Part shown: piece by piece, positions 10,509 through 63,100 of the stretch
Position numbering within the stretch: the stretch's first letter is position 1
Layout of the letters: the number at the start of each line of letters is the position of its first letter
Source: Candidatus Dojkabacteria bacterium
GTDB lineage: Bacteria > Patescibacteriota > Dojkabacteria > SC72
Direction of reading: 5' to 3'
DNA: 64,000 bases
Assembly (NCBI GenBank): GCA_016182915.1
Contig: JACPFP010000002.1
Coordinates: 230,244 to 294,243 of the forward strand
Notes under the pieces: model-generated
The model's database searches: none
The model's input: the letters and a program-made list of their open reading frames with translations, nothing else
What the model was told of the DNA's origin: nothing
Made by a program: the position numbers and the translations under genes

Positions 10509-10637
10509 CAAATAATCCTCAGAATTACTTATGCCTGACAACCTCTATTTCTAGAGACATCAGGACTTAAATTCATAAAGAGCTAGAGAATGCTTACGCA
10601 CTCAAAACTGAATAGAAAATGAATATTTCAAAAAGTT

Positions 10638-13760
<3,123 letters not shown>

Positions 13761-13833
13761 GAAATTGAATTCATTTCTATTCAGTTTTTAATGTGCAAAC
13801 TAATTCTCAGTATTTCTATTTCTAGAAGTACTT

Positions 13834-13928: not shown

Positions 13929-14005
13929 TGGTGGGCGTACCAAGAATCGAACTTGGGACCTCAGTCTTATCAGGACTGCGCTCTAACCGACTGAGCTATA
14001 CGCCC
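13929..14005 (-). tRNA. tRNA-Ile (anticodon GAU), CCA encoded
   Basis: The reverse complement GGGCGTATAGCTCAGTCGGTTAGAGCGCAGTCCTGATAAGACTG...TTCGATTC...CGCCCACCA is a canonical spacer tRNA-Ile. Confidence 0.85.
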
Positions 14006-14109: not shown

Positions 14110-15657
<1,548 letters not shown>

Positions 15658-26548: not shown

Positions 26549-26625
26549 TGGTGGGGGTGGGCGGACTCGAACCGCCGACATCGGCTTTATAAGAACCGCG
26601 CTCTAACCACCTGAGCTACACCCCC
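26549..26625 (-). tRNA. tRNA-Ile with anticodon UAU (decodes AUA)
   Basis: The reverse complement is GGGGGTGTAGCTCAGGTGGTTAGAGCGCGGTTCTTATAAAGCCGATGTCGGCGGTTCGAGTCCGCCCACCCCCACCA. The D-arm is identical to classic tRNA-Ile. The anticodon loop is CTTATAA, so positions 34-36 are TAT. Confidence 0.75.
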
Positions 26626-26692: not shown

Positions 26693-29233
26693 CTACCTAA
26701 GAGTCAGAGGAGGTGTTCCACTCTGGTTATCAGCCAAAGAACCCTCTGTAACAGCCAATCCTGCTCTTTGATTTATCTCCTGTTCAACAACATTCACATC
26801 TCTACCATATTTCAGCCTCGACAACTCCCTAATCTTTTGGGACATCTCTTTATTTACTGGAAGGTCAAAACCAGATTCAGGATAGCTGGGACCGTAGGAA
26901 GAGTCCAAAGAGAAAGGAGCTGGATATTTACCCCCTGAGATAAGCTTCACATACCAATGTAGGTTGGCCTGATTCATAATATCGTTCGCCGTAAAGACAG
27001 GATCAAACTGTGACTCCAAGAATTTAGCATCTTCGGGACCGGTTCTTGCTATGAGAAGTGTACCAACATTTCCGAAGATAGAGTTCTTGATATGCTCCTC
27101 CATCTGCGCAATATACTGGTTCGCGACAGTGAGGTTAAGACGGTATTTTCTTGCCTCAGAAAGAATAGAAGCAAATTCTTCTGTAGCGAAGTTCTGAAAC
27201 TCATCTACATAAAAGAAGAAATCCTTTCTCTCTTCTTCAGGAATATCCTCACGGCTCAAGGCAGCAGCAACAAGCTTAGGAATGAGGATTGTCCCGAGGA
27301 ACTGCATGTTTTCCTCCCCTACCAGACCCTTAGAAAGATTTACTATCAATATCTTCTTATTATCCATAACTTCCCTCATGTTGAATGAAGATTGAGATTG
27401 CCCAATAATATTCCTAACGGCAAGGTTGGTTACAAACCTATCGAACTTTGAGGTTAGATAGCCGAGAGTCTCTGATTTATGAAAATCACTTGTTTTTGCA
27501 ATTTGGTCCGTCCAAAACCTCTTAACCATGTCATCCTTAATCAGTGGAATCCACTTCTCATCAACCCACTTCTGATCTGTAATAATCCTTAATACCTCAA
27601 CAAGGGTGGAACCTTTCTCAGACATGGCGGTAAGCATTGCATTACGAACCGTTCTTTCAAGGATAGGGCCAACAATACCCTGGTTATGGGGATCGAAGAT
27701 CTTCTTAAGAAGACCTATAAACCCGTTTACAATTCTATGCTTATCCTGCTCGTCCGAAAACTCCATCATGTTAAAACCGAAAGGCCTTTGATTATCGGAT
27801 ACATCGAAATATATAACATCCTCAGCTCTTTCATGAGGGATACGATCAAGGACCATCTGAGCAGTCTGTCCGTGAGGATCAATGAAACAAACTCCATCGC
27901 CGTTATATATATCTTGAAGGATCATCCTTACAAGAAGCCATGACTTACCTGAACCTGTCTGTCCTAATACATAGGCATGTCTTCTTCTATCGTCTCTTTG
28001 GAAACATATTCTCTTTCTATTGCCTCTAAAAACATTATCACCTAACCATATAGTGTCCTTAGAGTTTACATCTGAACTAATCCAGTTTGCAGCTGGTGCC
28101 TCTTTAGCAAGAAGCCAGTTAATATTAGGTGTTGTGATCTCTTTATTTGGAAGGTGAAAGAGACTCGCAAGCTCATCGATATTTAGGATAGATCCGCTCT
28201 TTAAAGGCATTCTTCTATAGATAACATCATTCATGAAATCCCTACCCTTGAGCTTGTTCAACTTCTCTTTTTTAAATTCATTAATACCTGGATTGGAGAA
28301 CTGATCAAAAGCACCTACGATATTATTTAGATGCATATTAGCCAAATCTGAGTCCGAAGCAGATGTAACTATACGAATAGCGGTCCTAAACCCTATCTTA
28401 GACGTTTTCTTGCTTATTGCTTGCAACTGTTCCTGACTTACACTAATTCTCTTCTTCTCTGGGTCGGAGTTCGATTCTTCAACCTTCTGTACAAACTTCC
28501 TACCGTTTTTCTGCCATTTACTCCCCGCAGGAGAGATAACCAACTGGATAAGGGCACCTTCTCCATCCTCCATTTTACTTAAGGTACTCAAAATATTTGA
28601 GAGAGGATCTCCAGAAAAGTCTTCCGCTACTTTAACCGGATAGTATGGCTCATCTGTCTGGACCAGGCTTGCATATGCAACCTTGGAATTCTCACCGAAG
28701 ATATTATATTCATCCGTCCTTATAATTTCAGCCTCCTGATAGGAGCCTAATATCTGTTTCTCAACTAGGTCAGCTAGTTTCTTAGGAGCATATACATAGA
28801 ATCGAATCTCACCCGGAAGCCCAACCATCTCAAAACTAATACTATTTCCAACGGTCAGATATTTTTGAATACCCTTCCCTGCGCCACCGATTCCATATAG
28901 GTTCGCAAACATCTTTTCCGCGACTCCAACCTCTAACTCATTCCCCCTGGGGGCTCTAACCTCAATTAATACTCCAAGTTTGCTTTTTTCATCCCTGTCT
29001 TTTCTTTTTAAAATATTTGAATAGTAGTAGAGGGCGCCAATAATTCCTCCAATAAGGAGGGAAATTAGAAGAACCCACATAAAGACAGATACAAATGTGA
29101 TATTAGAACCATCCGTCTCCCCAAGAGAATCCTGTGGATAGACCACATTCTCCCCTGGTGTTACATCACCAGGTTGTATAGGGCCAATAGTCTGAGAGTA
29201 AACAAGATTAGTATAATCTAGAGCAGTTCGCAT
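26693..29233 (-). CDS. membrane-anchored P-loop ATPase of the HerA/FtsK/VirB4/VirD4 (AAA_10/TraG-D_C-like) superfamily
   Basis: 846 aa. A single N-terminal TM helix, a ~350-aa non-ATPase region, Walker A LGQTGSGKS, then DPHGQ, Walker B FFFYVDEFQNF, and an ARKYRLNLTVANQ motif typical of HerA/VirB4/FtsK-type translocases. Confidence 0.65.
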   Translation of the reverse strand: MRTALDYTNLVYSQTIGPIQPGDVTPGENVVYPQDSLGETDGSNITFVSVFMWVLLISLLIGGIIGALYYYSNILKRKDRDEKSKLGVLIEVRAPRGNELEVGVAEKMFANLYGIGGAGKGIQKYLTVGNSISFEMVGLPGEIRFYVYAPKKLADLVEKQILGSYQEAEIIRTDEYNIFGENSKVAYASLVQTDEPYYPVKVAEDFSGDPLSNILSTLSKMEDGEGALIQLVISPAGSKWQKNGRKFVQKVEESNSDPEKKRISVSQEQLQAISKKTSKIGFRTAIRIVTSASDSDLANMHLNNIVGAFDQFSNPGINEFKKEKLNKLKGRDFMNDVIYRRMPLKSGSILNIDELASLFHLPNKEITTPNINWLLAKEAPAANWISSDVNSKDTIWLGDNVFRGNRKRICFQRDDRRRHAYVLGQTGSGKSWLLVRMILQDIYNGDGVCFIDPHGQTAQMVLDRIPHERAEDVIYFDVSDNQRPFGFNMMEFSDEQDKHRIVNGFIGLLKKIFDPHNQGIVGPILERTVRNAMLTAMSEKGSTLVEVLRIITDQKWVDEKWIPLIKDDMVKRFWTDQIAKTSDFHKSETLGYLTSKFDRFVTNLAVRNIIGQSQSSFNMREVMDNKKILIVNLSKGLVGEENMQFLGTILIPKLVAAALSREDIPEEERKDFFFYVDEFQNFATEEFASILSEARKYRLNLTVANQYIAQMEEHIKNSIFGNVGTLLIARTGPEDAKFLESQFDPVFTANDIMNQANLHWYVKLISGGKYPAPFSLDSSYGPSYPESGFDLPVNKEMSQKIRELSRLKYGRDVNVVEQEINQRAGLAVTEGSLADNQSGTPPLTLR

Positions 29234-33674: not shown

Positions 33675-34106
33675 ATGCTAGATGTACAAGAAAAAAGACG
33701 AATCACTGATGCCCTCGTACACCTCACAGATAGTCATACCACAGAACCTCTATCTTTAGGCGAAGACGAAGAGATATCAGGCCTTAAAATATCAAACTTC
33801 AGACAAGGGTTTGAGTCAGCAACATCAGAAAGTATCACTATACTTATGGAACTAATAGTGGAAGGTGGTAGCCAAGAGAGGCAGTATGCTGAGGAAAAGG
33901 ACTTACAAAGACTATGCGGGTTTATATGTGGGCTAAGATTTAGAGGAAATACCTATTTGGCAGACGAAATTTGGGGAAGGCTCAATCAAAGCGGAGCACT
34001 TGACGCTGATCAGGACGCAGCCGAAGCAAGTGTAGTTCAAATAGTGTTCGAGGAATATTTACAAGAGCAAGGAATACTGGCTAAAGAAGTCTGCAATCTT
34101 TGGTAA
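33675..34106 (+). CDS. hypothetical acidic protein (143 aa). This is the only plus-strand gene in this block.
   Basis: The ORF is convergent with the SpoIID-like gene. No motif recognised. Confidence 0.3.
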   Translation: MLDVQEKRRITDALVHLTDSHTTEPLSLGEDEEISGLKISNFRQGFESATSESITILMELIVEGGSQERQYAEEKDLQRLCGFICGLRFRGNTYLADEIWGRLNQSGALDADQDAAEASVVQIVFEEYLQEQGILAKEVCNLW

Positions 34107-34109
34107 TCA

Positions 34110-36002
34110 CTATTTCTTCTCTATATTTATAAAGGTAACGTTATTACCCTGAGGTGGAATCTGTAAATATCCAGGTGCTCTTAAGTTGTAGACCGCTTCA
34201 AAACTGGCTCCTGGAATAGTTATAGTTCCCCTATTTGTACTGAACAGAATCGATGAAGTCTGACCCTGACTAGAGAACGACGATACCACCGAGTACACCT
34301 CTTTAACTGGATTGTTAAGTAATCCAGCCATCTGATCCTTATTGTACGGATTACCTGCAATTCCAGAGATAGGGCAATCAGAAATTGTAACAGGGAGGAT
34401 TCTTGAATAATCTACACTACCTTTTAAACCACTCCCCTCGTTCACCAACCATACATTGATAATATCCGCCATTTCTTTATTTGATAGATAGTTTCTCCCC
34501 TTGTTATCGATATTAGTTACGTCCTTCTTTGAAGAGTTACAGACCCCACCATTAAGAAGATTATACCAAGTTTTATAGAACCAAGGGCTATTTCCATATT
34601 TGGATCCTTCATACGCATTCTCCGTCCAACTTCCGCTCCCACCCTGCTTATTCGTAGTATCCCATCCTGAGGTATTTAAATATCCTCCAGAGGTTGAAGA
34701 AAATTGGAAATTACCTGTTCCGCCACTCAGAACCCACTTACTCGTATAGTCCACAGCTTGCTGCCATGCACTCGCATTTTTCTCCTTTTTTACCACCTGA
34801 CAGCTCTGACTCGGACAGATATATACATGACCATTACATTTTGCACTGTGTGTTTGAATATATCTAAGGGCGTAGCTTCTTGCAGAGACAACCTGTGCTC
34901 TCAAGACCGCAGTTGGCCAGCTACTTGGAACCTCGTAGAGCCTCTTGAGATACTCATCTACAGTAAAAGCCTGACAATTAAAGGCCTGCCCGTATTCATT
35001 TGTACCGTTTACATAGATTAATGATGGTACCGCATAGCTTTTATTCAAAGTCTCAGTGCCATAGTAAGCCTTGAGGATTTGTTCCGCACTCTGCCCTGCC
35101 TTCGCCCGACCATATGCTCCATACTGGCTCATACCGTTTCTATGGGTATAGGCACCCAGGGAAAATACTGCAAAGCTACCCGATTTCGCATTTGATACAA
35201 AGCCTGTCTTTGAGGAAAGGTTCTCAACGCTACCAGGTACATCTCCAACTCCAATAATCCCTCCCGATGCCTTTGCTAGAAGTATCGCCTCCTGTAGCTT
35301 TGAAATTTCCCCTTTTAGTGACGATATATCACTTCCCAGCCTCGAAGAAAGACTCTTTTTTGATGCCGCCTGAGAAGCCAAAGCGACTTTCTGTGATATG
35401 AGAGACTCTTTAGACTTCTCTAATCCCTCCTTTTCCTCTTCTAAGGACCCTTTCTCTCTCTCAACTTCAAGTTTCTCCTGTTTGAGTTGAGCAAAATTCT
35501 GAGAAAGAAGCTTTAATTTACCTACATAGCCAAATCCACTTAATTTCCGAAGAAATAGACCACGCAGAAGATCATCAGCACTTCTATTCGCAAAAAGGTA
35601 CTCTATGAATCCGAAGCGTGAAGATTTGTATAAGTTGGAAGCAATATCATCCAGAGCTTTCTGTTCCTTCTCCAGCTCACTCTGTTTTTGATTGATTACC
35701 TTCTCTTTCTGCTTAATCTCGTTAGATGCAGACTTTATATAGGTATCAATCTTATCAACCTGAGCACTCATCAGTTCTATCTTCTCATCAATACTCACAC
35801 TGCTCTTGTTAATTTCCTCTATCTCCCTCTTTATTTTATCCAAAGTACTCTCTTTCTCTTTAATCTCCTGGTTCTTCTTCTCTACCTCACTCTCTAAGTC
35901 ACCAACATCCTGTGAAAAAGCAGGGAGAGTGAAAAAGACCAAGGCATATACAACGAAGAGGAGAGAAAAAAGGATAATTTTTGGGGCATTTCTAAATTCC
36001 AT
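34110..36002 (-). CDS. secreted or membrane-anchored coiled-coil protein with a SpoIID/LytB-type peptidoglycan lytic domain
   Basis: N-terminal signal/TM, then ~250 aa of heptad-rich E/K coiled coil. The SpoIID/LytB signatures follow: GMSQYGAYGRA, and AVLRAQVVSARSYAL...CNGHVYICPSQSCQVV. An unknown ~200-aa C-terminal domain completes the protein. Confidence 0.65.
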   Translation of the reverse strand: MEFRNAPKIILFSLLFVVYALVFFTLPAFSQDVGDLESEVEKKNQEIKEKESTLDKIKREIEEINKSSVSIDEKIELMSAQVDKIDTYIKSASNEIKQKEKVINQKQSELEKEQKALDDIASNLYKSSRFGFIEYLFANRSADDLLRGLFLRKLSGFGYVGKLKLLSQNFAQLKQEKLEVEREKGSLEEEKEGLEKSKESLISQKVALASQAASKKSLSSRLGSDISSLKGEISKLQEAILLAKASGGIIGVGDVPGSVENLSSKTGFVSNAKSGSFAVFSLGAYTHRNGMSQYGAYGRAKAGQSAEQILKAYYGTETLNKSYAVPSLIYVNGTNEYGQAFNCQAFTVDEYLKRLYEVPSSWPTAVLRAQVVSARSYALRYIQTHSAKCNGHVYICPSQSCQVVKKEKNASAWQQAVDYTSKWVLSGGTGNFQFSSTSGGYLNTSGWDTTNKQGGSGSWTENAYEGSKYGNSPWFYKTWYNLLNGGVCNSSKKDVTNIDNKGRNYLSNKEMADIINVWLVNEGSGLKGSVDYSRILPVTISDCPISGIAGNPYNKDQMAGLLNNPVKEVYSVVSSFSSQGQTSSILFSTNRGTITIPGASFEAVYNLRAPGYLQIPPQGNNVTFINIEKK

Positions 36003-36026
36003 ACCCTATTATACAGAAAGAGTGAA

Positions 36027-36350
36027 TTAGTTTCCTATGAAGTCCAGAACTCCTTTTAGAATTGCTCTGAAAAGGAAGAGAAATACCAAACCAACAATTG
36101 CCCATGTTAGAGTTCCTTGAGCCTGTTTTAATTTTCCAGGATCACCAGACGATAGCATCCACATATATCCACCGTACACAATCATGATTAAAGAGATTAG
36201 GCCACCAATTGGAAGGATAAGCTCGGAAACACTATCAACAATCCCACCAATCTCCTCTAATCTTGGAGGAGCGGCAGCAAGTACCTTTCGGGGAAGAAGA
36301 GCCATTACAGCCAGAGAGAGAGAGGTTAATGCGGTTTTAATTTTTTTCAT
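36027..36350 (-). CDS. VirB2/TrbC-like two-helix pilin paralog A
   Basis: Signal peptide (MKKIKTALTSLSLAVMALLP...A), then hydrophobic helix 1 ending YGGYMWMLSSGDPGKLKQAQ, then hydrophobic helix 2. Confidence 0.5.
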   Translation of the reverse strand: MKKIKTALTSLSLAVMALLPRKVLAAAPPRLEEIGGIVDSVSELILPIGGLISLIMIVYGGYMWMLSSGDPGKLKQAQGTLTWAIVGLVFLFLFRAILKGVLDFIGN

Positions 36351-36352
36351 AT

Positions 36353-36625
36353 TTATAGTTTTCCTAGTACATTATCTAATATAAATCTGACAATTAGAGG
36401 AGAGATAAAGACAACTATCAAACCTACCAAAGTATAAATAATACTTTTTTGGGCCTTCTCTGCCTTTCCACTATCCCCTGCTGAAAGTATATACTGAAAA
36501 CCTGAAAAAACCAATGAACCAACTGCAATGAGAGCCGAAATAGCAATAATGAGATTAATGGTACCTTGAACCATTTCTATGAGAGAGCTATAACCTGTAC
36601 TATTTATAATAGATATATCGAACAT
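36353..36625 (-). CDS. VirB2/TrbC-like two-helix pilin paralog B
   Basis: Shares the family core with the other four: ...VFSGFQYILSAGDSGKAEKAQKS..., then a second hydrophobic helix. Confidence 0.5.
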   Translation of the reverse strand: MFDISIINSTGYSSLIEMVQGTINLIIAISALIAVGSLVFSGFQYILSAGDSGKAEKAQKSIIYTLVGLIVVFISPLIVRFILDNVLGKL

Positions 36626-36682
36626 AAGGTACGAGATAATATAAAAAAGGCAGGAGCGAACTCCTGCCTTCCAAAGTCTTAA

Positions 36683-37051
36683 TTAAGCTTTCAAAAGCTC
36701 CTTAAGGACGAAGTTTACAATCAATACTGATATGAAACAAATAACCAAACCAATGATTGCATAAGTAATACCTTTTGTAGCTTTCTCAATCTTTCCATCA
36801 TCACCAGATGCAACGATATACTGGATACCACTGTATACAAGAACACCAACAGAGATAAGTGCGGCAAGAGCAATAATCAAGTTCAATGCATTCTGAATGA
36901 ATCCGATTAAATTTCCACCACTGGTAGAACCATTAACTCCCCCGATAAAATCACCTGCACTAGCTGCAAGAGTGGCTGAAGCAAAATACAAAGCAGATCC
37001 AAGTGATGCTGCGTATGTCCCGACCTTCGCGATTACATTACTAACTTTCAT
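36683..37051 (-). CDS. VirB2/TrbC-like two-helix pilin paralog C
   Basis: Core ...VYSGIQYIVASGDDGKIEKATKG... flanked by two hydrophobic helices. Longer Gly/Ser-rich N-terminal region. Confidence 0.5.
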   Translation of the reverse strand: MKVSNVIAKVGTYAASLGSALYFASATLAASAGDFIGGVNGSTSGGNLIGFIQNALNLIIALAALISVGVLVYSGIQYIVASGDDGKIEKATKGITYAIIGLVICFISVLIVNFVLKELLKA

Positions 37052-37142
37052 TGTTATTTAAGAGTAATTAAATTAATAGCTTATAACTACGGACATTATA
37101 TTATATGTGAAATCAATCTGCAATAGGATAAACACCAAATAT

Positions 37143-37478
37143 CTATCTTAAGAACTCAGTAATTAAGAACATTACAATCATGCGTGCTAAAAAGACTATT
37201 ATCATTCCAACAATTGAATTAGTTATAATACTTTGCGCCTGTTCTATCTTATCTCCGTCTCCTGCAGCGGTAATCATTGTAATACCTCCATATACAAGTA
37301 AAGCAACTAGAACCAACGCAGACAGGTTTACAGCACCATTAACGAGTTCAGTAGCCTTACCAACGGCTCCCCCAACAGTAGTAAAGGAATCACTTCCCCA
37401 AGGATTGGAAATTCCAAACCAGCTCGCAAACATATATCCTTTTTCTTTAACCTTCTCACTAATCTTTTTTAGATTCAT
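37143..37478 (-). CDS. VirB2/TrbC-like two-helix pilin paralog D
   Basis: Core ...VYGGITMITAAGDGDKIEQAQS... flanked by two hydrophobic helices. Confidence 0.5.
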   Translation of the reverse strand: MNLKKISEKVKEKGYMFASWFGISNPWGSDSFTTVGGAVGKATELVNGAVNLSALVLVALLVYGGITMITAAGDGDKIEQAQSIITNSIVGMIIVFLARMIVMFLITEFLR

Positions 37479-37496
37479 ATGTATTTATAAAATAGT

Positions 37497-37850
37497 TTAA
37501 GGATTTATCCCAGGGATATTTAACGTGTTCTTTATAAGAAGCAAGATAGCAACAGAAAGAGCAATTAACGCAAACCCTATCACTGCGTTAGTAACCACCT
37601 CCCTAGCCTCTTGCAATTTTTCTGGGTCGCCTTGGCTTGTAATCATGTTATAGCCAGCATAAGCAAAAAGTCCAATTGCGCTTAATACACCAACAGGGAT
37701 AGATAATTGGACAAGCGCATTTACTAGTGAAGGGATATCCTGTGAGTTAACTACATCAGTTACATTACCAGATATCGCATTACTCAAAGCATCTGCATAT
37801 GCTGGAGTTGAAATTGCATGAAAGAATTTTTCTAAAAGACTCTGTATCAT
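37497..37850 (-). CDS. VirB2/TrbC-like two-helix pilin paralog E
   Basis: Probable signal peptide (..STPAYA|D), core ...AYAGYNMITSQGDPEKLQEAREV..., then a second hydrophobic helix. Confidence 0.5.
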   Translation of the reverse strand: MIQSLLEKFFHAISTPAYADALSNAISGNVTDVVNSQDIPSLVNALVQLSIPVGVLSAIGLFAYAGYNMITSQGDPEKLQEAREVVTNAVIGFALIALSVAILLLIKNTLNIPGINP

Positions 37851-37868
37851 ATATGTTGGAATTATACA

Positions 37869-40856
37869 CTACAAAATAGCCTCTTCACAAACGTCTTGAT
37901 AGTTGCAATACATACAGTTGTGGGAACGAGGGATTGTGAAATCACCAGCTCTAATTTTCCCTACGATATTCTCTATCTTCTTAATAACATTCTTTTTTCT
38001 CCTATCTGTTACACTAATCTCTACCTTTTTACTATGCTCAACATAGATATACGAGGCTTTATCAACCTTAACACCCCACAAAGCTTCTGCCACGAGAGCG
38101 TAGAATACTAACTGCCACTGAGTATTAGCGTCCTTCTGAGACTTTGCCTTCCCTGTCTTGTAATCAATAATCTCCACATGTTTAACTCCGTCCTTAATCC
38201 CAAGAAGGTCCACCCTATCGACCTTTCCTAATACTCTAAAATCACTCATAGAGTACTTAAACGATTTTTCAAGAAATAGAGTTCTCTCTGTTCCCGTATG
38301 AAAGCTTTCAAAGTACCTCTCTAAAGCCTTCTTTCCAAACTCAAACCTCTTCTTCTCATGAGCCTTCGATTCATAGCCCTCAGGTTGCCAGAATGTTTCA
38401 TAAAGGTCCAGCAAGTCCTTCTTTCCAGGCTTATCTACAAATCCTTCAAGCCCTTCATTTGCAACAGCAAGCTTCTCATAGAAAGTTCTGAGTACATTAT
38501 GAACCGTGTTACCAAATGAAAGAGCTGCGTTTGTTGGGAGAGGAATTTTTAATACGTAGCTATACTTATACTGACGAGGACACATCTCATATGAAGCGAT
38601 TTGGGAGTAACTAAATTGATTCTTAAGCTCTACCCCCACCTTTTTGTAATCTATGATATCCGAGTTATCTAACCTCTGGAAAACCTGGAAGTCAACGGAA
38701 TCTTCTGTATCCTTAATACTCTTTAGGTCTTCATTTACATCTCTTCCCAAAACCTCATTCAAAAATCCACTTACCTTTCTAATCCGGCCAGCCCCGCTAT
38801 ACGACTTAGCCACACTCAAGAAAAGTTTCTCCTTTGCCCTCGTAACACCTACATAGAAAAGCCTCCTCTCCTCGTGTAAGTGTTCATTTACCTCTTCACC
38901 ACTTGGTAGGACCTCTTTTATCAGGTCGTTGGGTATAGCAAGTTTGTCATACTTCGCCCTGGTTGGAAATCTATCCTCAACGAGGTTAACAATGAAAACG
39001 ACAGGAAACTCTAAACCCTTAGATCCATGTACTGTTGAAATATTAACACCTTCAAAATCAGCGACTGCTTCACCATTTGTACTAGGGTTCTCCCCAATTT
39101 CAAGACTGTAGTCTAAATAATCAAGATACTCATAGATGGTTGCTCCGACATTGCTTTTTTCAAATTCCTTAAGCATCTCAAAATACTTCCTAATATTCTC
39201 AACTTTGAAGATATCTTTCTGATTATCTTCTTTGATAATATTGTCTTTCCAACCGCTTTTATCGAAAAATTCGTAGAGAATATGACCCACACCTTTACCC
39301 TCTTTAACCAACTCGAACCCTCTTCTCAGAAGTTTAACAATATTACTTATCGCTGTTAATGCCGTATTATTGAGTCTCTTCTTTAGTTGAGAAACTTCCT
39401 CTTCCTTCTCAACTATCTTCTCAAAAAGTTCAAATAGAGGTATATGAGTCTTCCTGGAATACCTCATCAGTTCAACCACCTCTCGTGCTTCGAAGCCCCA
39501 AACCTTCATACTTAAGATATTAAACATAGAAACCCCATGGTCGTAGTCTGAAAGAAGCCTTAGATATGAAATTAGAACTTTAATCTCATCAGTATTGTAT
39601 AATCCCTTCGCGCCTCCAAATCTGTATGGAATTCCCCTGTACCTAAGGGCCTGAATAAAGTCCTCGCTCTGAGTATGAGCTCTAACAAGGATAGCCATAT
39701 CGGAGTATGTATACTTCTTTTCAACCTCTACCATCTCACTTATAAGTTTTGCAATCTGATCTGCTTCATTTGATCCGGTATTTGAGAGGATTAGTTTAAC
39801 CGCATCTTTTTCGTCTTTCTCGTAATCAGCCCTTGCAATCAGCCGCTTACTCGTTTGCTCCGTTACCTCAAGTCTATACGGATTATTGTTCTGTATTAGC
39901 CTGTATGCACAATCTAGTATCTCCTGTTTAGAGCGGTAGTTTTCAGTCAGAACAATTCGCTTTGCGGTTGAGTACACATCTTTAAACTGGATTATGTTTG
40001 AGATAGCTGCGCCACGAAACTTATAGATGGATTGATCATCATCCCCAACCACTGTAATATTCGCCGATTTACTCTCTTTCTCACTAATATCTTTCGGATC
40101 TTTACCTGTTGCCAGCATGTTCACAAGTACGTTCTGGGTATAGTTTGTATCCTGATACTCGTCTACAAGGATATATTTAAATTTCTCATGATACTTCTTA
40201 AGGATATTAGGTCTGTCTCTAAAAAGTTTGATTACAGTATTTATTAGATCTCCAAAGTCCAATCGAGATTCCTTTAATTTTAACTCTGTGAAGAATTTGT
40301 ATGCGTTAGCTAGTTCAACCATCTGTTTTTTATCCAATCCTTTTGTATCATCATCTTCCTTAATCCCATTTGCATACTTGATATAGTCCTCCGGGGTTAC
40401 ATCCTCATCTTGAAGTCTGGAAAAGTGGCTGAGGATTTGGGATATAAAACCGCTTGGGTTGCCAAGGGGGCGGAAAATATCTAATGGCATCTCGAATATA
40501 TGTTTACGAAAGAGCATATATGCTTCAACCTCAGTCATTAGTTTGTAGTTGGGATTGAGTCCAAGAAAAATACTCTCCTGTCTTAGAATCCTATCGCAAA
40601 AGGAGTGGAAGGTTGATATCCACACCTCTTCGTATCCGTATGGCATAGCCACATCTACTCTTTCTAGCATCTCTTTTGATGCCTTTTCAGTGAATGTTAG
40701 GGCCAATATCTCAGATGGTTTAGCCCATCCTTTGTTTACAATATTGAGTATTCTCTGGGTTATAACTGCTGTCTTTCCCGTGCCGGCTCCAGCAATTATA
40801 AGAAGTGGCCCAGATTTATGATTAACGGCTTCAAGTTGAGATTTATTAAGATCCAT
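37869..40856 (-). CDS. UvrD/PcrA-like SF1 helicase fused to a C-terminal Cas4/AddB-type PD-(D/E)xK nuclease with an Fe-S cluster
   Basis: N-terminal helicase motif I AGAGTGKT, then the UvrD motifs DEYQDT and the VGDDDQSIY region. The C-terminal ~250 aa have an N-terminal Cys (CPRQYKY), an exonuclease core (EIIDYKTGK), and a C-terminal CMYCNYQDVC triad typical of 4Fe-4S RecB-family nucleases. Confidence 0.8.
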   Translation of the reverse strand: MDLNKSQLEAVNHKSGPLLIIAGAGTGKTAVITQRILNIVNKGWAKPSEILALTFTEKASKEMLERVDVAMPYGYEEVWISTFHSFCDRILRQESIFLGLNPNYKLMTEVEAYMLFRKHIFEMPLDIFRPLGNPSGFISQILSHFSRLQDEDVTPEDYIKYANGIKEDDDTKGLDKKQMVELANAYKFFTELKLKESRLDFGDLINTVIKLFRDRPNILKKYHEKFKYILVDEYQDTNYTQNVLVNMLATGKDPKDISEKESKSANITVVGDDDQSIYKFRGAAISNIIQFKDVYSTAKRIVLTENYRSKQEILDCAYRLIQNNNPYRLEVTEQTSKRLIARADYEKDEKDAVKLILSNTGSNEADQIAKLISEMVEVEKKYTYSDMAILVRAHTQSEDFIQALRYRGIPYRFGGAKGLYNTDEIKVLISYLRLLSDYDHGVSMFNILSMKVWGFEAREVVELMRYSRKTHIPLFELFEKIVEKEEEVSQLKKRLNNTALTAISNIVKLLRRGFELVKEGKGVGHILYEFFDKSGWKDNIIKEDNQKDIFKVENIRKYFEMLKEFEKSNVGATIYEYLDYLDYSLEIGENPSTNGEAVADFEGVNISTVHGSKGLEFPVVFIVNLVEDRFPTRAKYDKLAIPNDLIKEVLPSGEEVNEHLHEERRLFYVGVTRAKEKLFLSVAKSYSGAGRIRKVSGFLNEVLGRDVNEDLKSIKDTEDSVDFQVFQRLDNSDIIDYKKVGVELKNQFSYSQIASYEMCPRQYKYSYVLKIPLPTNAALSFGNTVHNVLRTFYEKLAVANEGLEGFVDKPGKKDLLDLYETFWQPEGYESKAHEKKRFEFGKKALERYFESFHTGTERTLFLEKSFKYSMSDFRVLGKVDRVDLLGIKDGVKHVEIIDYKTGKAKSQKDANTQWQLVFYALVAEALWGVKVDKASYIYVEHSKKVEISVTDRRKKNVIKKIENIVGKIRAGDFTIPRSHNCMYCNYQDVCEEAIL

Positions 40857-41244: not shown

Positions 41245-41547
41245 CTAGTACTCACTTTTATAGACCTTACTTCCTCCTGAGTGACCACCGATAGTTAAAA
41301 CGATTATCATTTTAGATTTTCCACTAAAGTTCCATAGTATGCGGAGATCCCCCGTAACTTTGGACGCATACACAATACCGAAAAGATGTGAGTTTACTTT
41401 ATGTGTGTTAAGAGACTCTGCAAATGGATCCAGGGATAGTATTTCAATAACTTTCTTAACTTTAATTACTAAATGAGAGTTTCCTTTAGATACCTTATGA
41501 AGTTTTCTAACATAATATGTAGTTTGATCAATGTGGTATCTATTCAT
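41245..41547 (-). CDS. type II toxin, RelE/ParE superfamily
   Basis: 100 aa. Pattern ...VKKVIEILSLDPF...HKV.SHLFGIVY..KV.GDLRILWNF...KMIIVLTIGGH resembles RelE/StbE. Overlaps the upstream antitoxin gene by 8 nt. Confidence 0.55.
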   Translation of the reverse strand: MNRYHIDQTTYYVRKLHKVSKGNSHLVIKVKKVIEILSLDPFAESLNTHKVNSHLFGIVYASKVTGDLRILWNFSGKSKMIIVLTIGGHSGGSKVYKSEY

Positions 41548-41842
41548 CCTTTTTTACACTATCAGCAAGATTCAGATAGAAATCGTCAATATCTTTTTTA
41601 GTTTTAAGTGTTATATAGTTTCCCTTCCTATAATCCTCAAGTGCTTTCCCTACCTCCTTCTCTGTCTCCTCATCCAGGATCTCATACTCATCCGTCTCTA
41701 TATCCTTAATCGCCAGATGTCTAAGGTACTCAGCAAAGGAAACCCCAAATCTTTTAGCCTTGCCTTCAATTAATTTCGCAAGTCTACCTGGGAAAACCAT
41801 CTGTTTTACAATTTTATCCTGCATACCCATTAGTATATTCAT
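41540..41842 (-). CDS. ribbon-helix-helix (CopG/RelB/ParD-like) antitoxin
   Basis: 100 aa. N-terminal ...FPGRLAKLIEGKAKRFGVSFAEYLRHLAIKDIE fits an RHH fold. Acidic C-terminal tail. Encoded immediately upstream of, and overlapping, the toxin. Confidence 0.5.
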   Translation of the reverse strand: MNILMGMQDKIVKQMVFPGRLAKLIEGKAKRFGVSFAEYLRHLAIKDIETDEYEILDEETEKEVGKALEDYRKGNYITLKTKKDIDDFYLNLADSVKKDE

Positions 41843-53843: not shown

Positions 53844-54776
53844 GTGAAAAAATCAGTTATGGAACTATCAAATGAGCTCACCGCACTATACAGACATTGG
53901 GAAAAACACATTAATAATAGAAACGAGGATAGGAAGGTGATATTAAACAGAGATGTATACGAGAGAATAGTTAAGTTTGCCAATGAAAGAATGACTATTT
54001 ATGAGAGGAAAATCAAAGGAGATCTTCCTCCATTCAGTACCGATAAGATACTCTGTAACTATAGATTTTGTAATATCTATAGAGAATTAGACAGACAAAC
54101 AATTGCATTCCATAGGCTTCTGAAACCATACGAAAATAACTTTTCCCTCTGGCTTCTCAATATGCTCTTCTGCCGTTTTATATGCAATCCAGGAACAATA
54201 TCGAAGGTTGGACTCCTAAACTTTGAAAGGAGCAACAACATTAAGGTATTTAAAAAGCTCTCCTCCCTATCCTCTCCTAAATATGGAGTCGCCTACATAT
54301 TTCCCATAAGTACAATACAAAAATCCAAATACAATACCCGTGAGAAATTCTTCTGTTACTACCTCCCCACCGTAATAAAAGAGATTGCAAAGGAGATTGA
54401 AGCCTTCGAGAGCATTTCAGTTACAGAGGCTTTAGAAAGACTCCTCCCTATCTTTGGCTTCAACTTTAAGTTCCATTTTACAGAACTCCTAATCGACACG
54501 GCATACCAGTACCCAGATAAAATAGATCTATTTAAGAGGTTCCCAATTGGCCCAGGCTCCCTCCCTACAATGAACCTCCTCAACCCTACTCAATCCCCAG
54601 AGGAGGTGTGCATGAGCCTTGCTTCCACACATCCTAACAAGTTTAACTACCTAACAATCAACGGTAAAAAGATTCCCCTTAGTGCAGAGAACTGGGAAGG
54701 GATAGGGTGTGAATTTAGAAAATATACAAACCTAAACAAGGGAGATGGAAGGAAGCGACTGTATATAAATAAGTGA
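53844..54776 (+). CDS. hypothetical protein (310 aa) with conserved-looking NYRFCNIYRELDRQT and GPGS blocks
   Basis: Long ORF with coding-like composition. No family confidently recognised. Confidence 0.45.
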   Translation: MKKSVMELSNELTALYRHWEKHINNRNEDRKVILNRDVYERIVKFANERMTIYERKIKGDLPPFSTDKILCNYRFCNIYRELDRQTIAFHRLLKPYENNFSLWLLNMLFCRFICNPGTISKVGLLNFERSNNIKVFKKLSSLSSPKYGVAYIFPISTIQKSKYNTREKFFCYYLPTVIKEIAKEIEAFESISVTEALERLLPIFGFNFKFHFTELLIDTAYQYPDKIDLFKRFPIGPGSLPTMNLLNPTQSPEEVCMSLASTHPNKFNYLTINGKKIPLSAENWEGIGCEFRKYTNLNKGDGRKRLYINK

Positions 54777-57177: not shown

Positions 57178-60100
57178 CTACTTTTTCCTTACTACAATAT
57201 TTTTAGTTATAGTTTTTTCTCCCTTTGCCGTGATATTAACAACACTAGATCCCCCCTCAAACTTCATCGCTTTATAATCGCTGGAGATAACAACAAGTTC
57301 GTATGCTCCGGGATATATTACAAACCTATACTTTCCATTCTTATCTGTAATACGCTTCGATACAAACCTATCAAACTTCATCTCTTTAATAGCAATCTCT
57401 ACATTCTCAATCGGTTTTCCCTTGATATCCGTAACAATTCCATATGATGCTTCCTCACCAAACATAGATTTATAGAGCATGTAGAAGGCCGGAATATAGA
57501 ACGCTATTACAATCCAATTAGTGAGAGATGGGAACTTTACAACGGTATATACACCAAGAATTATTCCACCCACGAAGATTACTGCGTGGAGCATTTTAAG
57601 AATAAGGTTTATACTAGTTCTTGCAGATACGGAAAGGGCTTTGAATCTATCAACTTTAGTTGGATCGATAGGGATAAGTACCCGAACCTCTTCCCTCTTA
57701 CTTAGGCTGAACAACTCACCTTTGTAGATAGGTTCAAGAGGATAATCAACTACACCCTTAACAATTTCTGTTGGATACTTAAATCCGCCTTTTTTAACAA
57801 GTAATTTATATTTTCCTTTCGGGAGTTCAACATTGAAAGATCCGTATACATCTGTTACATCTGTCCACACAAGCTTATCGTTAACATCATATATTCTGAC
57901 TATTGCTCTTGAAACTGGTTCTTTTGTAACCGAGTCATATACATATCCATATGGTTTACCTTTCTTTCTAAAGCCAAGAAGAGAAAGCATACTTAAAAAT
58001 AGTTGCGTTAAGAAGTATGGGACAGAACTAAATCCTCCACCGATAGCTGCTAGTCCAACTGTGACCGTTGCCGCAGTGGCCGTAGTTGTAACAGCTGTTA
58101 ACTGAGGTTCTGGAAGGTCCCCGACAACACTATTATCTATAGCTATCTTAACGCCATCAATAGCTTCTGTTGCATTAGTTTCTGCAACCGTTGTTAATAC
58201 AGTGTTAACAACATCATTCACAACTTTAATTGGTGTATTTATAACAACAGGGGGAGTGATTGGTTCTTCTTCCTCTTTTTCAGGATCTTCAACGGTAGGT
58301 TCTTTCACCTCGCCTCCTGTATCAACGGTTTCACCTAATCCTCCCGTTCCTGTTAAACCTGAGACAACCCAATAGCTAACACCATCAATTACTGAAGTAG
58401 ACACTGTAACCAATGACCCATCAATATCAATAGTCTGAGGATATGGACCAGCAAATACCACACTACCTGCACAATCACTATTTACTTCATCTATTGATTC
58501 CGCTTTTGTACACAATTTAAACCGATTACTCTCCTCCTTTGGAACATACATAGTATAGGTTCCCTTTAATCCTGCAGTTTCAGGGAGTTTAACAACAACT
58601 TTGCTACCCTCAGCCACGATAACAGCCGAACTCCAGTCTCTATTCTGTGTAAACTCAATCGGGACATCTGCAACAATTGTGTTGTTTCTAAGAACTCTAA
58701 CCTCCTGTACACCCCTCTGACCTCCTAAATCAGTACTTGGATCTACATTCAGACTGCTCTTTAGCCTGAGAAGTACTCCAACAGGAATATTCTCTATAAT
58801 TGCATTTGTACCATATTGAGTTCTTGCCCCCAAACCTGTAACAATTCCTGCCCCATTTCTTGCATTAATTCGGAAGGAGTAGTCTGAAACTGGTGCTAAA
58901 CCGCTTAACAGAACCCCTATATTCCCACCGAATTCTGAATATGTTCCCCAAACAGGTTCTGTTGTTAGAAGACCTGTTCTGAAATCTACAAATCTTCCTT
59001 GAGACTCCTCATATATAGAGTACTGAACACTTGAATCATTAGCGTTTCTAAATATTCTTAGGGTTAAAGACCTCAAAGTTACAGTATTAATACTCTCAAC
59101 TCCAGGAATGCTGGCTAATGTGTACGAAACAAAGCTTGAGGAGGTACCAGATTCAAGAAGATTACCATTTCTAGATTTAGCAATAAATTCATGCCTGGCT
59201 CCTGGAACAAGTCCGTTTATTGTCATACCATTGAGACCTCCGAAATCAGCAAATTTACCCCACTTAACATCAGATACTAGAGTTCCTGTTCTAGGATCTA
59301 CAGACTTTCCACTTACAATATCCATTATACTGTAGTCCGTATTCGCAGGATTCTGGTTTGCACTAACCTTTATAAGGAGAGAGGTTGGAGTATTAAGAGT
59401 AACTCCAACTCTTCCTGGAGTATTTGAAAGAGTATAAATCTTAGAACTTGGAGATGGCGTAGACTCTACATTCTGTCCATTACGGGATATTGTATGGAAT
59501 TCATACTCTGTATTTATTCCCAAACCACTTATACTAAAACCTGTTCCCCTCCCCCAATTAGTATACGTTCCCCAAACAGCATCCGTCTCCCATAAACCAT
59601 TTGTGTAGTTAAAATATTTAGAAGTTGTGACATCCTTGAAAGCAAAGGTTGTAACCTCTGGATTACCTCCATTATCAATTACAACCTTAATTCTAGATTC
59701 TGAAAGAGGAGTTAGAGCCGGCGAAGAGGTCTGAACGGAAAGGGTATAAATAGTCACAATATCTGATGTAGAAGTAATCACGTCTTCACCATCTCTAGCA
59801 ACAACTGCAAATTGATACTCTGCATTAGCAAAGAGTTCAGAGACAAAGAAACCAGAGGCCCCTCCTAATTCATCTAACGTATACCAGGAATCTGCAGAGA
59901 GAAGACGCCCTCTTCCTGACCTAAAATCTCCAACTTTCAATCCTGAAATGACCTCCCTCACTTGGTATTGAGTATTTGATGGATTACCGCTAGCGTTTAC
60001 AACAAGCTTTATAGCCGTTGAACTAGACGCCTCAGAGCTTGAGAACTGTGGTGTGGCAGCAGGCGTATATTTGGAAGCCGTTGAACTGTAATCTCCCCTC

Positions 60101-63100
60101 CCCGTTGCATTATAGGCAGCAACCTTTCTTGTATACAGAGTATTTGGGGTCATACCATATTCAATACATGAGGTAAGCGCAGTTCCTAAACACTCAGCAA
60201 CCTGTACTCCATTGGTATCATAGACCCGGTATCCCTGTTCATTTGTTTCATTATCTGTAAAGACCCATCTGATAGAGGTCTCGGACAACCTAATAGGAGT
60301 TCCTATAGTAGGGGCATTTAAAGAGGTACTTACATTTGAGCCTACGCTGAAGGAGGTTTCTATATTGTCAGCATTTCTTGCTTTTGCAACAAACTCATAA
60401 GTAGTTCCAGATTCTAAACCTGATATCGTATATCCGTTATCTCCTCCCCATTGCGCATATGTCCCCCAGACAGGAGTATCACTATCATTACCTGTATTAT
60501 AGTCAACATATTTGGATTTAGTTGAATTATATAAGGCAAGTTGGGTTGAAATTGGATTTCCATTCAGGTCTAAAACGGCCTTAAGCGAACTCACACTTAT
60601 ATCTGAAACTTCAACGCTCCCTGGAACATTTGCAAGGGTATATTTAGCCAGCCCAACAGAGAAGCTCGTATTTATATCATCATTATTTTTGGCTATTGTG
60701 GAGAATGTATATTCACTATTTGGTGAAAGTCCAACAACACCAAACCCAGTTACGCTTCCCCATTGTGCGTATGTGGCCCAGCTTGGCGAAGCCTGAAGTA
60801 CTCCAGTACTATTGTTTACATACAATCCAGAGGTATTTTCTCTCACTGCAAATTGTGTATAGACAGGATTACTAGAAGATCCGACAACAATGACGAGAAC
60901 AGTTGATGAGCTAGGTGAAAGTGAGACAACAGTTGGGGCATTGGCATAAGTATATCCTGAAACGGAAGTTGAAAATGCAGTTTCAATATCATTAGCATTC
61001 CTTGCTTTAACATCGAAAGTGTATTGAGTATTGGCAAGGAGACCATTAACGGTAACTCCACTTGCCCCGCCATATTGGGCATACGTACTCCAAACTGCAG
61101 TATCCGAAAGGGTATTAGTCGCCTCATCTATGAACTTTCCACTGTTAACTTCACGAACGGCATATGTAGTTGTAGAAGGATTGCCTCCTGTACCTAGGGT
61201 AACGTTAACACCGGTACTAGATACTCCCTCCGCAGAAACAACAGAAGGGACAACGGCATGCGTATAAACACTATATGTTCCACTATATGCGGTTTCAACA
61301 GCCTCACTGTTCCTTGCCTTCACCTTGAATATATATTCAGTGTTTGGGTCAAGATTATTTACATCAAAATCAACACCTGTATCAACATACTCAAACCATG
61401 TTGGAGTTGAAATAAGTTCTCCTGTTGTTTGAGAGTAGTATTTCCCAGTACCCTCTTCAAAAATACTAATTTCTGTTCCTCCTGGGTTGCCATTCATGGT
61501 AACCCCAAAAGAAACTCTACCTTGGGTTCCAGAAAGATTGGTTAAAGAAGGAATGGCTGCACGAGTCGTTTCAGATTGAGTCCCGCTAAATACACTATCA
61601 ACATTAGCATTATATGCCTTTACCTTTCTTGTATATGTAGTATTAGGAGAGAGACCCGTTTCATCACAAAAAGTAATATCAGGGGTCGCACATGTAATTA
61701 GAAGACTTCCACTTGAATCATATACTTTAAATCCACTTTCATTAACCCCACCATCCGTAAAATTCCAACGAATTGAACTTGAACTTAATGCCTGTCCGGA
61801 GACCAATATTGGAGTAGAAAGAAGGGTATAAATTTCGGTGGAACCACTATATGCGGTTGTAACGTCTTCAGAATTCTTAGCTCTAACGGCAAGTATATGC
61901 TGCGAACCCTCTGTTAATCCAGACACTAGAACCCCACCCCCTTGCGTCCAGGTGTCATAGTCAGCCCAAACCTCTGACAAACCAATGCTGCCATCAACAT
62001 TACTTATAAACTCATTGGCTCCATACTTTACAGAATACAAAACAGAACTTGGATTACTATTTAGATTTTGATTTAGAGAAACTCTAAACGTATGTTCTGT
62101 GATCTCGCTGGCAACAGGATCCAAAGGAGCATTTGCAAGAGTATAACCAGATACTGGATCCGTAGAAGAAGTCTCGACTCCCTCACCATTTCTAACTTTC
62201 ACAGTAAATGAATATTGAATATTTGGAGACATGCCGGAAAGGACTACCTGATCTGAGGCAGTCCATATATCTCCAATACTACATCCAGTAGTACAGATCA
62301 CGTGAATTGCACCTTGATCGGCTCCAAGATTAGGAACATTTGTAACAGAAACTGTGAAGGAGGTTGAGGTTGGATTTACAATAGAGACGGTAGGAAAAAG
62401 AGCTAGGGTATATTTAGACACAGAGTCGGAATCTAGGGTCTCAACACCGTCTCCATTTCTAGCTTTTACCACAAACGTATACTGAGTGTTGTTTGTAAGT
62501 GACGTTGCAGTTGCCGTTGTTGCAGGATTCCATACATTCAATCCCGAATCACAAGAGGCAGACGTGCAATCAAAGTATAATGCAGAGAGTCCTACTCCTA
62601 AATTAGAAACTCCTGCGGCATTCAGCCCAATACTAGTCGTCGCTACAGTGGTGGTAGAGATTGTAGGCGTATTTATAAGTGTATACCTACTAGTCAGGCT
62701 TGATGCCTGGCTATCACCATTAGCATTGTATGCAATTATAGCCCTTGTATATTGAGTATTGGCAGAAAGCCCTGTTTCATCACAATATGTAAGATCTGCA
62801 CTTGCACACGTAGCCTTTACAACCCCTAATTCGTCTACAACCTTAAACCCTGTTTCATTAGTAGCATTGTCTACGAAATTCCACCTTATAGAGCTTGTTG
62901 TTAACGCCTGAGCAGCAACGGATGTAGGTGCAGCAGGAGCGTTAGACTGCTCATTTGATAGTGAAAAAGAGATAGAATCTCCAGCGTTGTTATTCTTCTT
63001 AATAAAATAGGAGTTGAGATATGAAGGGAGGTTTGACGCAGAAGCCGTTGTCGTAGTCAAAGTATGATTGTGTGTATACCCAGCTAAAGTACCTGCTGGA

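Follow-up and report, generated by a model that had tools for sequence, protein, structure and literature searches.

Five tandem, anciently diverged T4SS_pilin-family genes in a Candidatus Dojkabacteria genome as candidate fixed subunits of a type IV secretion-like apparatus

The Pilin Gene Array

The window analyzed here is a 64,000-nucleotide (64-kb) stretch of contig JACPFP010000002.1 from a metagenome-assembled genome (MAG) of Candidatus Dojkabacteria. At 36027-37850 on the minus strand, it contains five consecutive open reading frames (ORFs) that encode small proteins resembling the pilins of type IV secretion systems (T4SSs), denoted p1, p2, p3, p4, and p5 in the order of transcription. 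An earlier interpretation made from the letters alone, termed the sequence-only reading, had placed five tandem small genes of 90-122 amino acids (aa) at this position, and its count, sizes, and coordinates are all exact. Identical proteins are entered at NCBI as HYV12_01585 to HYV12_01605 under the annotation "hypothetical protein", and the same stretch is present in the Logan assembly of SRR12113422. The genes and their most characteristic features are as follows.

37497..37850, minus strand: p1, 117 aa, PF18895 pilin-like (31.5 bits); short atypical N-terminus (AYA↓DA); its C-tail, NTLNIPG(I/L/V)(N/Q)P, is peculiar to this paralogue and kept in all orthologues
37143..37478, minus strand: p2, 111 aa, PF18895 pilin-like (38.2 bits), with its own orthologue clade in the tree; signature N-terminal segment (A/T)SWFGISNP(W/F)GSDSFTT, the WFGISNPWGSDSFTT segment being kept among orthologues
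36683..37051, minus strand: p3, 122 aa, PF18895 pilin-like (47.3 bits), candidate major subunit; leader, then a Gly/Ser-rich linker, then the hairpin, and the copy nearest to the family consensus
36353..36625, minus strand: p4, 90 aa, leaderless PF18895 protein (43.0 bits)
36027..36350, minus strand: p5, 107 aa, passing both PF18895 (45.7 bits) and PF04956 (29.9 bits); behind a classical signal peptide it carries AAPP(R/K)L(D/E)EIGG, a motif conserved in the orthologue alignment

The copies are strongly diverged, with pairwise identities of 21-49% among p1-p5 (mean 28%, maximum 49%). The closest pair is p3 and p4, which are 49% identical and sisters in both the tree and the identity matrix, and p4 is a younger duplicate of p3. 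A hidden Markov model built from p1-p5 was searched against every stop-to-stop ORF of 50 aa or more in the window (365 in all) and found no sixth copy, the next best match having E = 0.48.

Family Assignment and Architecture

Membership of p1-p5 in the T4SS_pilin family (PF18895) is nearly certain. All five proteins exceed the gathering threshold of this family (31.5-47.3 bits against 26.6), and the array is therefore not a chance pattern. The related TrbC/VirB2 family (PF04956, threshold 27.9 bits) is reached by p5 alone at 29.9 bits, and its orthologues pass the same threshold; p1, p3, and p4 remain at 12-14 bits, and p2 is not matched. The N_methyl, Flp, ComGC, and VirB3 families of Pfam give no match in any of p1-p5 even at E ≤ 1, and the prepilin motif of the G↓F(T/S)L(I/L)E type is absent from all five sequences. 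These searches with TrbC, T4SS pilin, and Flp/ComGC models, which the sequence-only reading had proposed, bear out its assignment of the array to VirB2/TrbC-type T4SS pilin-like proteins rather than to type IV pilins: T4SS_pilin is present in five of five and Flp and ComGC in none, p5 qualifies for PF04956 as well, and the architecture is that of a two-helix hairpin.

The wider family gives the same picture. When the alignment was searched against a database, 492 relatives reached E ≤ 1e-5, and PF18895 is carried by all of the best 120 among them. Among 116 homologues that were scanned, PF18895 is found in all 116, TrbC in 42 at E ≤ 0.01, and DctQ, weakly, in 44. Because so many homologues weakly match DctQ, the TrbC signal of the less typical copies stands little above compositional noise.

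Conservation is concentrated in a short core. Residues G60, G68, D69, K72, A76, and G86 (p5 numbering) are invariant among p1-p5, and across the 116 homologues G60, G68, K72, and G86 remain invariant while D69 and A76 are nearly so. The conserved core that had been read from the sequence is thus real, with a pattern slightly different from the one given then: its true form is [YF]-[AGS]-G-x-x-[MYW]-[IM]-x-[SA]-x-G-D-x-x-K-x-x-x-A. Each protein has two Kyte-Doolittle hydrophobic segments, with the invariant G-D-x-x-K loop between the helices. AlphaFold2 models p5 (residues 30-65/70-105) and p3 (residues 47-79/84-118) as helical hairpins with a predicted local distance difference test score (pLDDT) above 90, in keeping with the two-helix topology proposed earlier.

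The N-termini are less uniform than had been supposed. In a heuristic inspection of the sequences, the cleavable-looking N-terminal segment ascribed to every copy is evident as a classical signal peptide only in p5 (KKIK..., a hydrophobic core, and VLA↓AAPP) and is plausible in p3. The N-termini of p1 and p2 are atypical, and p4 is without any leader, as are its orthologues.

These data make it very improbable that p1-p5 are unrelated small membrane proteins, of a holin-like, bacteriocin-immunity, or transporter-accessory kind, whose pilin matches stem from hydrophobic composition. It is true that several members give weak, sub-threshold matches of the DctQ, cytochrome bd subunit II, and LrgB types, and that the hairpin fold is generic. 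However, the PF18895 threshold is exceeded by every one of the five proteins and 116 homologues, the invariant polar G-D-x-x-K-x-x-x-A loop motif is not explicable by composition, and in Southlakia epibionticum the PF18895 family sits inside a T4SS cluster (PMC10633639).

Positional Orthologues and Selection

Related genomes were found through a search with the neighboring helicase and comprise WS6 GW2011_GWF2_39_15 (L002), UBA2022 (L003), DTUPAT1 (L004), and two MAGs labeled Saccharibacteria by their submitters (L005 and L009). Their helicases are 44-75% identical to that of the window. Pilin genes lie directly after the helicase, with five each in L002, L005, and L009 and four in L004, from which p4 is missing; L003 stops at a contig edge. 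In the window, L002, L004, L005, and L009, which are the five genomes of all conservation counts given below, the number of copies is nearly constant (5, 5, 5, 5, and 4).

The copies correspond position by position. A neighbor-joining tree contains five clades, one for each array position, with p4 as sister to p3. Mean identity is 55-69% between orthologues as against 28% between paralogues, the upper value being that of p1 (mean 69% over L002, L003, L004, L005, and L009). Relative to L002 and L005, orthologue identity is 68-88%, and that of the flanking housekeeping helicase is 75%. The proportion of nonsynonymous differences between orthologues (pN) is 0.09-0.34 and that of synonymous differences (pS) a saturated 0.6-0.8, which indicates purifying selection; since synonymous sites are saturated in most comparisons, only the contrast of pN with pS is used, and no ratios of substitution rates (dN/dS) are given. 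The parts of the proteins that differ most among the copies are the termini. The N-termini are 15% identical between paralogues and 53% between orthologues, and the C-tails 18% and 75%. Paralogue-specific termini are thus kept within orthologue groups, as with NTLNIPG(I/L/V)(N/Q)P at the C-terminus of p1 and AAPPRL-EIGG in p5.

Two explanations of the five paralogues had been offered in the sequence-only reading, a heteropolymeric filament or variation of an exposed appendage. The combination of positional orthology, purifying selection, and conserved termini peculiar to each copy favors the first in the form of fixed, non-redundant subunits, whether of a heteropolymer or with specialized roles, and leaves a variation cassette less favored. 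The pattern is that of long-standing, subfunctionalized subunits and not of a cassette with fast turnover.

If the array were a variation device, the paralogues would be alternative versions of an exposed subunit that serve the matching of host strains or the evasion of host or phage, and they would be used singly or in changing proportions. Proposals of this kind exist for the virB2 paralogues of Bartonella and Anaplasma, and PMC12102498 suggests the same for Patescibacteria. The paralogues do differ most where exposure is expected, at the N-termini and C-tails, and the separate promoter-like sites and internal terminator described below could permit differential expression. Against this, each copy is kept as a positional orthologue although the flanking helicase is only 44-75% identical, selection is purifying and the copies change at about the pace of the housekeeping neighbor, and the "variable" termini are themselves conserved inside each orthologue group. 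A repeat search of the array DNA gave only short chance matches, with no invertible elements and no signs of gene conversion, and the copy number hardly changes. Given that the copies are unrecognizable as DNA repeats, the duplications are too old to be seen in the DNA. A variation device is thus distinctly unlikely, and the pattern qualifies the idea of adaptation to different host strains, at least for the class Dojkabacteria.

Putative Regulatory Signals

Three signals mark the array. Promoters were called by consensus matching, and the conservation of the terminator was assessed by five separate folds with shuffle controls.

37861..37890, minus strand: promoter-like site before p1, TTGTGA-18-TATAAT, the best of the scan with 10/12 matches
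37095..37123, minus strand: promoter-like site in the 91-nt p2-p3 spacer, TTGCAG-17-TATAAT, read from the sequence and not reported by the promoter scan
36645..36672, minus strand: intrinsic-terminator-like hairpin and T-run directly after p3, with a 12-bp stem that includes 6 G-C pairs

Upstream of p1, TAGTGTATAAT is conserved in all five genomes, and the promoter-like -10 box ends 10 nt ahead of the ATG. The box in the p2-p3 spacer, TAATATAAT, is exact in four of the five; L009 has TAATAAAT, with one base missing. The hairpin after p3 has a calculated dG of -19 kcal/mol in the window (z = -3.7) and recurs in all five genomes with different stem sequences (-19 to -22 kcal/mol, z -2.9 to -4.4). 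In a MAFFT alignment of the five terminator regions, the stems are out of register because their lengths differ.

The gene p3 is therefore bracketed by a promoter-like box and a terminator, and its product is nearest to the family consensus, which leads to the proposal that p3 is the major subunit. Among the best 120 of the 492 database matches, 76 are of the p3 type, a count that the query profile may bias. Taken together, these signals are consistent with p3 as an abundant major subunit, with p4 and p5 proposed to be expressed by read-through.

A further observation concerns translation. TATAAT boxes lie 6-10 nt upstream of the ATG of p1 (37851-37866) and of the gene downstream of the array, which encodes a SpoIID-domain protein (36003-36026), both on the minus strand and conserved in the related loci. 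A Shine-Dalgarno sequence is almost absent ahead of the pilin genes. The short distance from TATAAT to ATG, along with the near lack of Shine-Dalgarno sequences, suggests leaderless or near-leaderless mRNAs.

Genomic Context

The array is flanked by a UvrD/PD-(D/E)XK helicase-nuclease and by a coiled-coil protein with a SpoIID domain, beyond which lies an ATPase of the VirD4 or type IV coupling protein (T4CP) kind.

34110..36002, minus strand: SpoIID-domain protein, 630 aa, with a membrane anchor or signal, a coiled coil, and PF08486 SpoIID
26693..29233, minus strand: VirD4/T4CP-like ATPase, 846 aa, with T4SS-DNA_transf, TrwB_AAD_bind, TraG-D_C, and VirD4-like CD1115 matches

The SpoIID-domain protein lies directly downstream of the array in L002, L004, L005, and L009 as well. 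Its score against TIGR02669 SpoIID/LytB is 71 bits, below the cut-off of 83.3. It is a candidate cell-wall remodeling partner, with a role that may be like that of VirB1 elsewhere. In Patescibacteria, glycosidases other than VirB1 may open the wall, as noted in PMC12102498.

The T4CP-like ATPase lies about 7 kb downstream of the array within the same conserved block, and the window contains no other ATPase of the T4SS type. With identities of 74-87% in the related loci, it shows the highest conservation in the block, and its only PDB sequence matches are DotL and TrwB. An unusually long N-terminal region of about 400 aa, with one transmembrane helix and an unassigned domain, precedes its Walker A motif. 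The protein was considered as the missing VirB4 and rejected, its best matches being coupling proteins of the VirD4/TraD/TrwB/DotL type.

The order of the block is conserved in L002, L004, L005, and L009 and runs from the helicase through the pilins, the SpoIID protein, a bPH protein, DUF5657, a 779-aa protein, SmpB, and a 200-aa protein to the T4CP. Four of these proteins (the 779-aa membrane protein, the 200-aa protein, the 205-aa bPH protein, and the 83-aa DUF5657 protein) have no T4SS-related family or PDB match. The association of the pilins with the block could be plain synteny, as the block includes SmpB. The rest of the window is chromosomal core, with Rho, RadA, ClpC, S1, an rRNA operon, an ATP-dependent ligase, PolA, FtsH, EF-P, and an XerC/D-like integrase besides SmpB.

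Two minor observations belong to the block. An acidic 143-aa ORF at 33675-34106 on the plus strand interrupts it; this ORF has no Pfam match and no counterpart in L002, L004, L005, or L009 and is probably a strain-specific insertion. Furthermore, L005 and L009 share this Dojkabacteria-type gene block, and the L005 helicase is 75% identical to that of the window; the taxonomic labels given by the submitters may be wrong.

Relation to Known Pilin Arrays

Arrays of this kind are known from a survey of 3,035 Patescibacteria genomes whose search profiles included PF18895 and PF04956 (Quinonero-Coronel et al. 2025, PMC12102498). It reports 441 VirB2 arrays of 2-11 genes in 383 Patescibacteria assemblies, in which identity averages 25% and does not exceed 54%; Microgenomatia and Saccharimonadia have them particularly often. 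A pilin gene lies near virB4 in 1,135 of 1,948 assemblies, and most Patescibacteria genomes with pilin arrays carry VirB4. In its Table S1 there are at least five Dojkabacteria entries, at least two of them marked VirB4-positive. For Southlakia epibionticum, Wang et al. 2023 (PMC10633639) describe a series of predicted pilins in the T4SS cluster SEML1_0006-0019, which is essential for epibiotic growth; there are six such pilins in this cluster (PMC10633639, PMC12857230). The function of the T4SS-like apparatus of Patescibacteria has been described as completely unknown (PMC11665869).

The array of the window is a further example of the class described in 2023-2025 and not a new kind of system. 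Like the surveyed arrays, it consists of tandem PF18895 genes with or without PF04956, its five copies fall within the reported range of 2-11, its identities are similarly low (mean 28% and maximum 49%, against 25% and 54%), and it is chromosomal, from the same phylum, and without a relaxase nearby. It differs in belonging to Dojkabacteria, a class barely represented in that survey, and in having no virB4 within at least 27 kb on either side, where the block with the SpoIID protein and the T4CP-like ATPase is found instead. New here are the positional orthology, the purifying selection, and the promoter/terminator bracket of p3, none of which appears in the passages of PMC12102498 and PMC10633639 that were available. 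The remark of the sequence-only reading that five such genes in a row are unusual accordingly applies to conjugative systems and not to Patescibacteria, given 441 arrays in 383 assemblies. Its guess at a life attached to other cells fits the source, the genome of an ultra-small Candidatus Dojkabacteria bacterium (Candidate Phyla Radiation (CPR)/Patescibacteria; WS6).

Two other groups offer further comparisons. PMC12102498 names the virB2 families of Anaplasma, Ehrlichia, and Bartonella as examples of tandem amplification. These families are read as serving antigenic or host-range variation. They resemble the array as diverged tandem virB2-type genes in host-dependent bacteria with reduced genomes; unlike them, the array keeps its copies as stable positional orthologues on which purifying selection acts, a pattern that points to fixed roles. 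Like the diderm VirB2/TrbC/TraA pilins (PF04956), p1-p5 are small, carry an apparent leader in some copies, and have two hydrophobic helices and a short polar loop with a conserved basic residue; p5 also passes the TrbC threshold. The differences are that p1-p4 lie below this threshold, that there is no sequence match to solved pilins, that no virB3, virB4, or virB5 is adjacent, that the host is monoderm, and that there are five paralogues instead of one.

A monoderm comparison is provided by NF045849, the NCBIfam model of the Mbov_0395 family pilin-like conjugal transfer protein from integrative and conjugative elements (ICEs) of Mycoplasma. It matches p1, p3, p4, and p5 with 26.1-33.5 bits and p2 not at all. 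Among the homologues, 114 of 116 are matched at E ≤ 1e-3 (best E = 2.3e-12). The matches to the four proteins and to the homologues cover nearly the whole 80-position profile. Because the scores lie below the equivalog cut-off of 40 bits, the proteins are relatives of this family and not members. The Mbov_0395 protein belongs to a monoderm system of the MPF-FATA type, and the VirB4 of Patescibacteria is related to this class; unlike the pilins of the array, it has only one gene, which neighbors VirB6 and VirB4, and its hosts are wall-less. The resemblance suggests that the PF18895 pilins may have come with monoderm (MPF-FATA-like) machinery related to the VirB4 of Patescibacteria. It thereby bears on a question that the survey left open, that of a joint arrival of the pilins with monoderm-type machinery as against their co-option from another source (PMC12102498).

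The same resemblance raises the question of whether p1-p5 are pilus subunits at all. They might instead be small integral-membrane proteins that never leave the membrane, as components of a T4SS translocon of the monoderm kind or of a different envelope complex, and would be comparable to the VirB3-like hairpins of Mycoplasma ICEs. Mycoplasmas lack a wall, and no conjugative pilus is known from them. Gram-positive T4SSs are generally without pili, p4 is leaderless, and the match to NF045849 (114 of 116 homologues) is more consistent than that to TrbC. The small proteins of Mycoplasma ICEs have moreover been described as VirB3-like (PMC12857230). However, VirB3 families give no match to any of p1-p5 at E ≤ 1, the TrbC/VirB2 threshold is passed by p5 as well as by its orthologues, and a translocon usually needs one such subunit and not five conserved ones. 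VirB3/PrgI homologues are also detected separately in Patescibacteria (PMC12102498). A purely membrane-resident role is on balance rather unlikely.

Proposed Mechanism

The reading preferred here is that p1-p5 are fixed, non-redundant subunits of a T4SS-associated filament or conduit in which p3 is the major subunit, and it is given a probability of roughly 0.55. That the array is associated with a T4SS is likely. The five proteins would be anciently diverged, individually conserved PF18895 members that belong to the type IV secretion-like apparatus, chromosomal and non-conjugative, that is typical of Patescibacteria. Each would take up its place in the cytoplasmic membrane as a helical hairpin, following signal-peptidase cleavage in the case of p5 and probably of p3, with the G-D-x-x-K loop between the helices and the paralogue-specific N- and C-termini facing outward. 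On the model of VirB2/TraA pilins, extraction from the membrane would fall to a VirB4-type ATPase with its gene elsewhere in the genome, and the pilins would be assembled into a wall-spanning filament or conduit aimed at the host cell. The abundant major subunit would be p3, with its own promoter-like box and the terminator behind it, and p1, p2, p4, and p5 would be lower-abundance or specialized subunits, for example in initiation, at the tip, or as adaptors. The adjacent SpoIID-domain protein may open the peptidoglycan. Steps that we infer are polymerization, the division into major and minor roles, the connection with VirB4, and the function given to the SpoIID protein.

Several points weigh against this reading. 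To our knowledge, a filament of PF18895 proteins has never been observed. The TrbC similarity of p1-p4 is sub-threshold and as weak as the spurious matches to membrane proteins of the DctQ type. Profile searches of PDB sequences, made with the family alignment and with the p5 clade, gave chance-level matches and no solved relative, and fold searches return only generic helical hairpins with no pilin near the top, the hairpin being too simple a fold for such a search to discriminate. Among the ORFs of the 64-kb window there is no VirB4, VirB3, or VirB6 family match, so that the link to a T4SS draws on family membership and analogy. In PMC12102498, a link of the T4CP-like class to virB4 is described as rare, and S. 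epibionticum as able to dispense with this class. The major role of p3 is argued from consensus-type signals only, the -35 box of the spacer before p3 matches at just 3/6 positions, and the excess of p3-type relatives is possibly query-biased.

In favor of the fixed-subunit reading, the stable, individually conserved paralogues and the regulatory signals of one gene argue for a multi-subunit structure over a variation cassette. The orthology and the regulatory findings also yield concrete predictions for the apparatus: p3 should be far more abundant than the others, and all five should be required. A more specific version is put forward tentatively and is, taken as a whole, somewhat improbable. 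According to it, the five paralogues would be obligatory, distinct building blocks of one heteromeric, wall-spanning filament of a monoderm T4SS, with p3 as major subunit and the others as minor, initiator, or tip components standing in for the missing VirB5. The internal promoter and terminator of p3 would determine the stoichiometry, and the proteins would descend from a small hairpin protein of monoderm systems (MPF-FATA, Mycoplasma-ICE-like) and would not have been borrowed from diderm T4SSs.

Other Features of the Window

Several features lie apart from the array and its block. The 23S rRNA match at 10626-13762 (minus strand) extends over 3,137 nt against a model of 2,925 positions, and the extra ~210 nt may be a CPR-type rRNA insertion; the 16S at 14111-15655 is of normal length. 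A tRNA-Ile with the anticodon UAU at 26549-26625 (minus strand) is present besides tRNA-Ile(GAU) at 13929-14005, which is an uncommon form of AUA decoding in bacteria. At 41245-41842 (minus strand), two overlapping 100-aa ORFs (41540-41842 and 41245-41547) have a toxin-antitoxin-like arrangement; neither has a Pfam match at E ≤ 0.001, and both are called as genes in the Logan contig. The 310-aa protein encoded at 53844-54776 (plus strand) matches the 5-hmdU DNA kinase helical domain (PF18723, E = 1.7e-20), a family of thymidine hypermodification pathways, and its neighborhood includes GNAT acetyltransferases. Finally, a giant ORF of 2,235 aa at 57178-63885 (minus strand) contains fibronectin type III repeats and encodes a possible surface adhesin.

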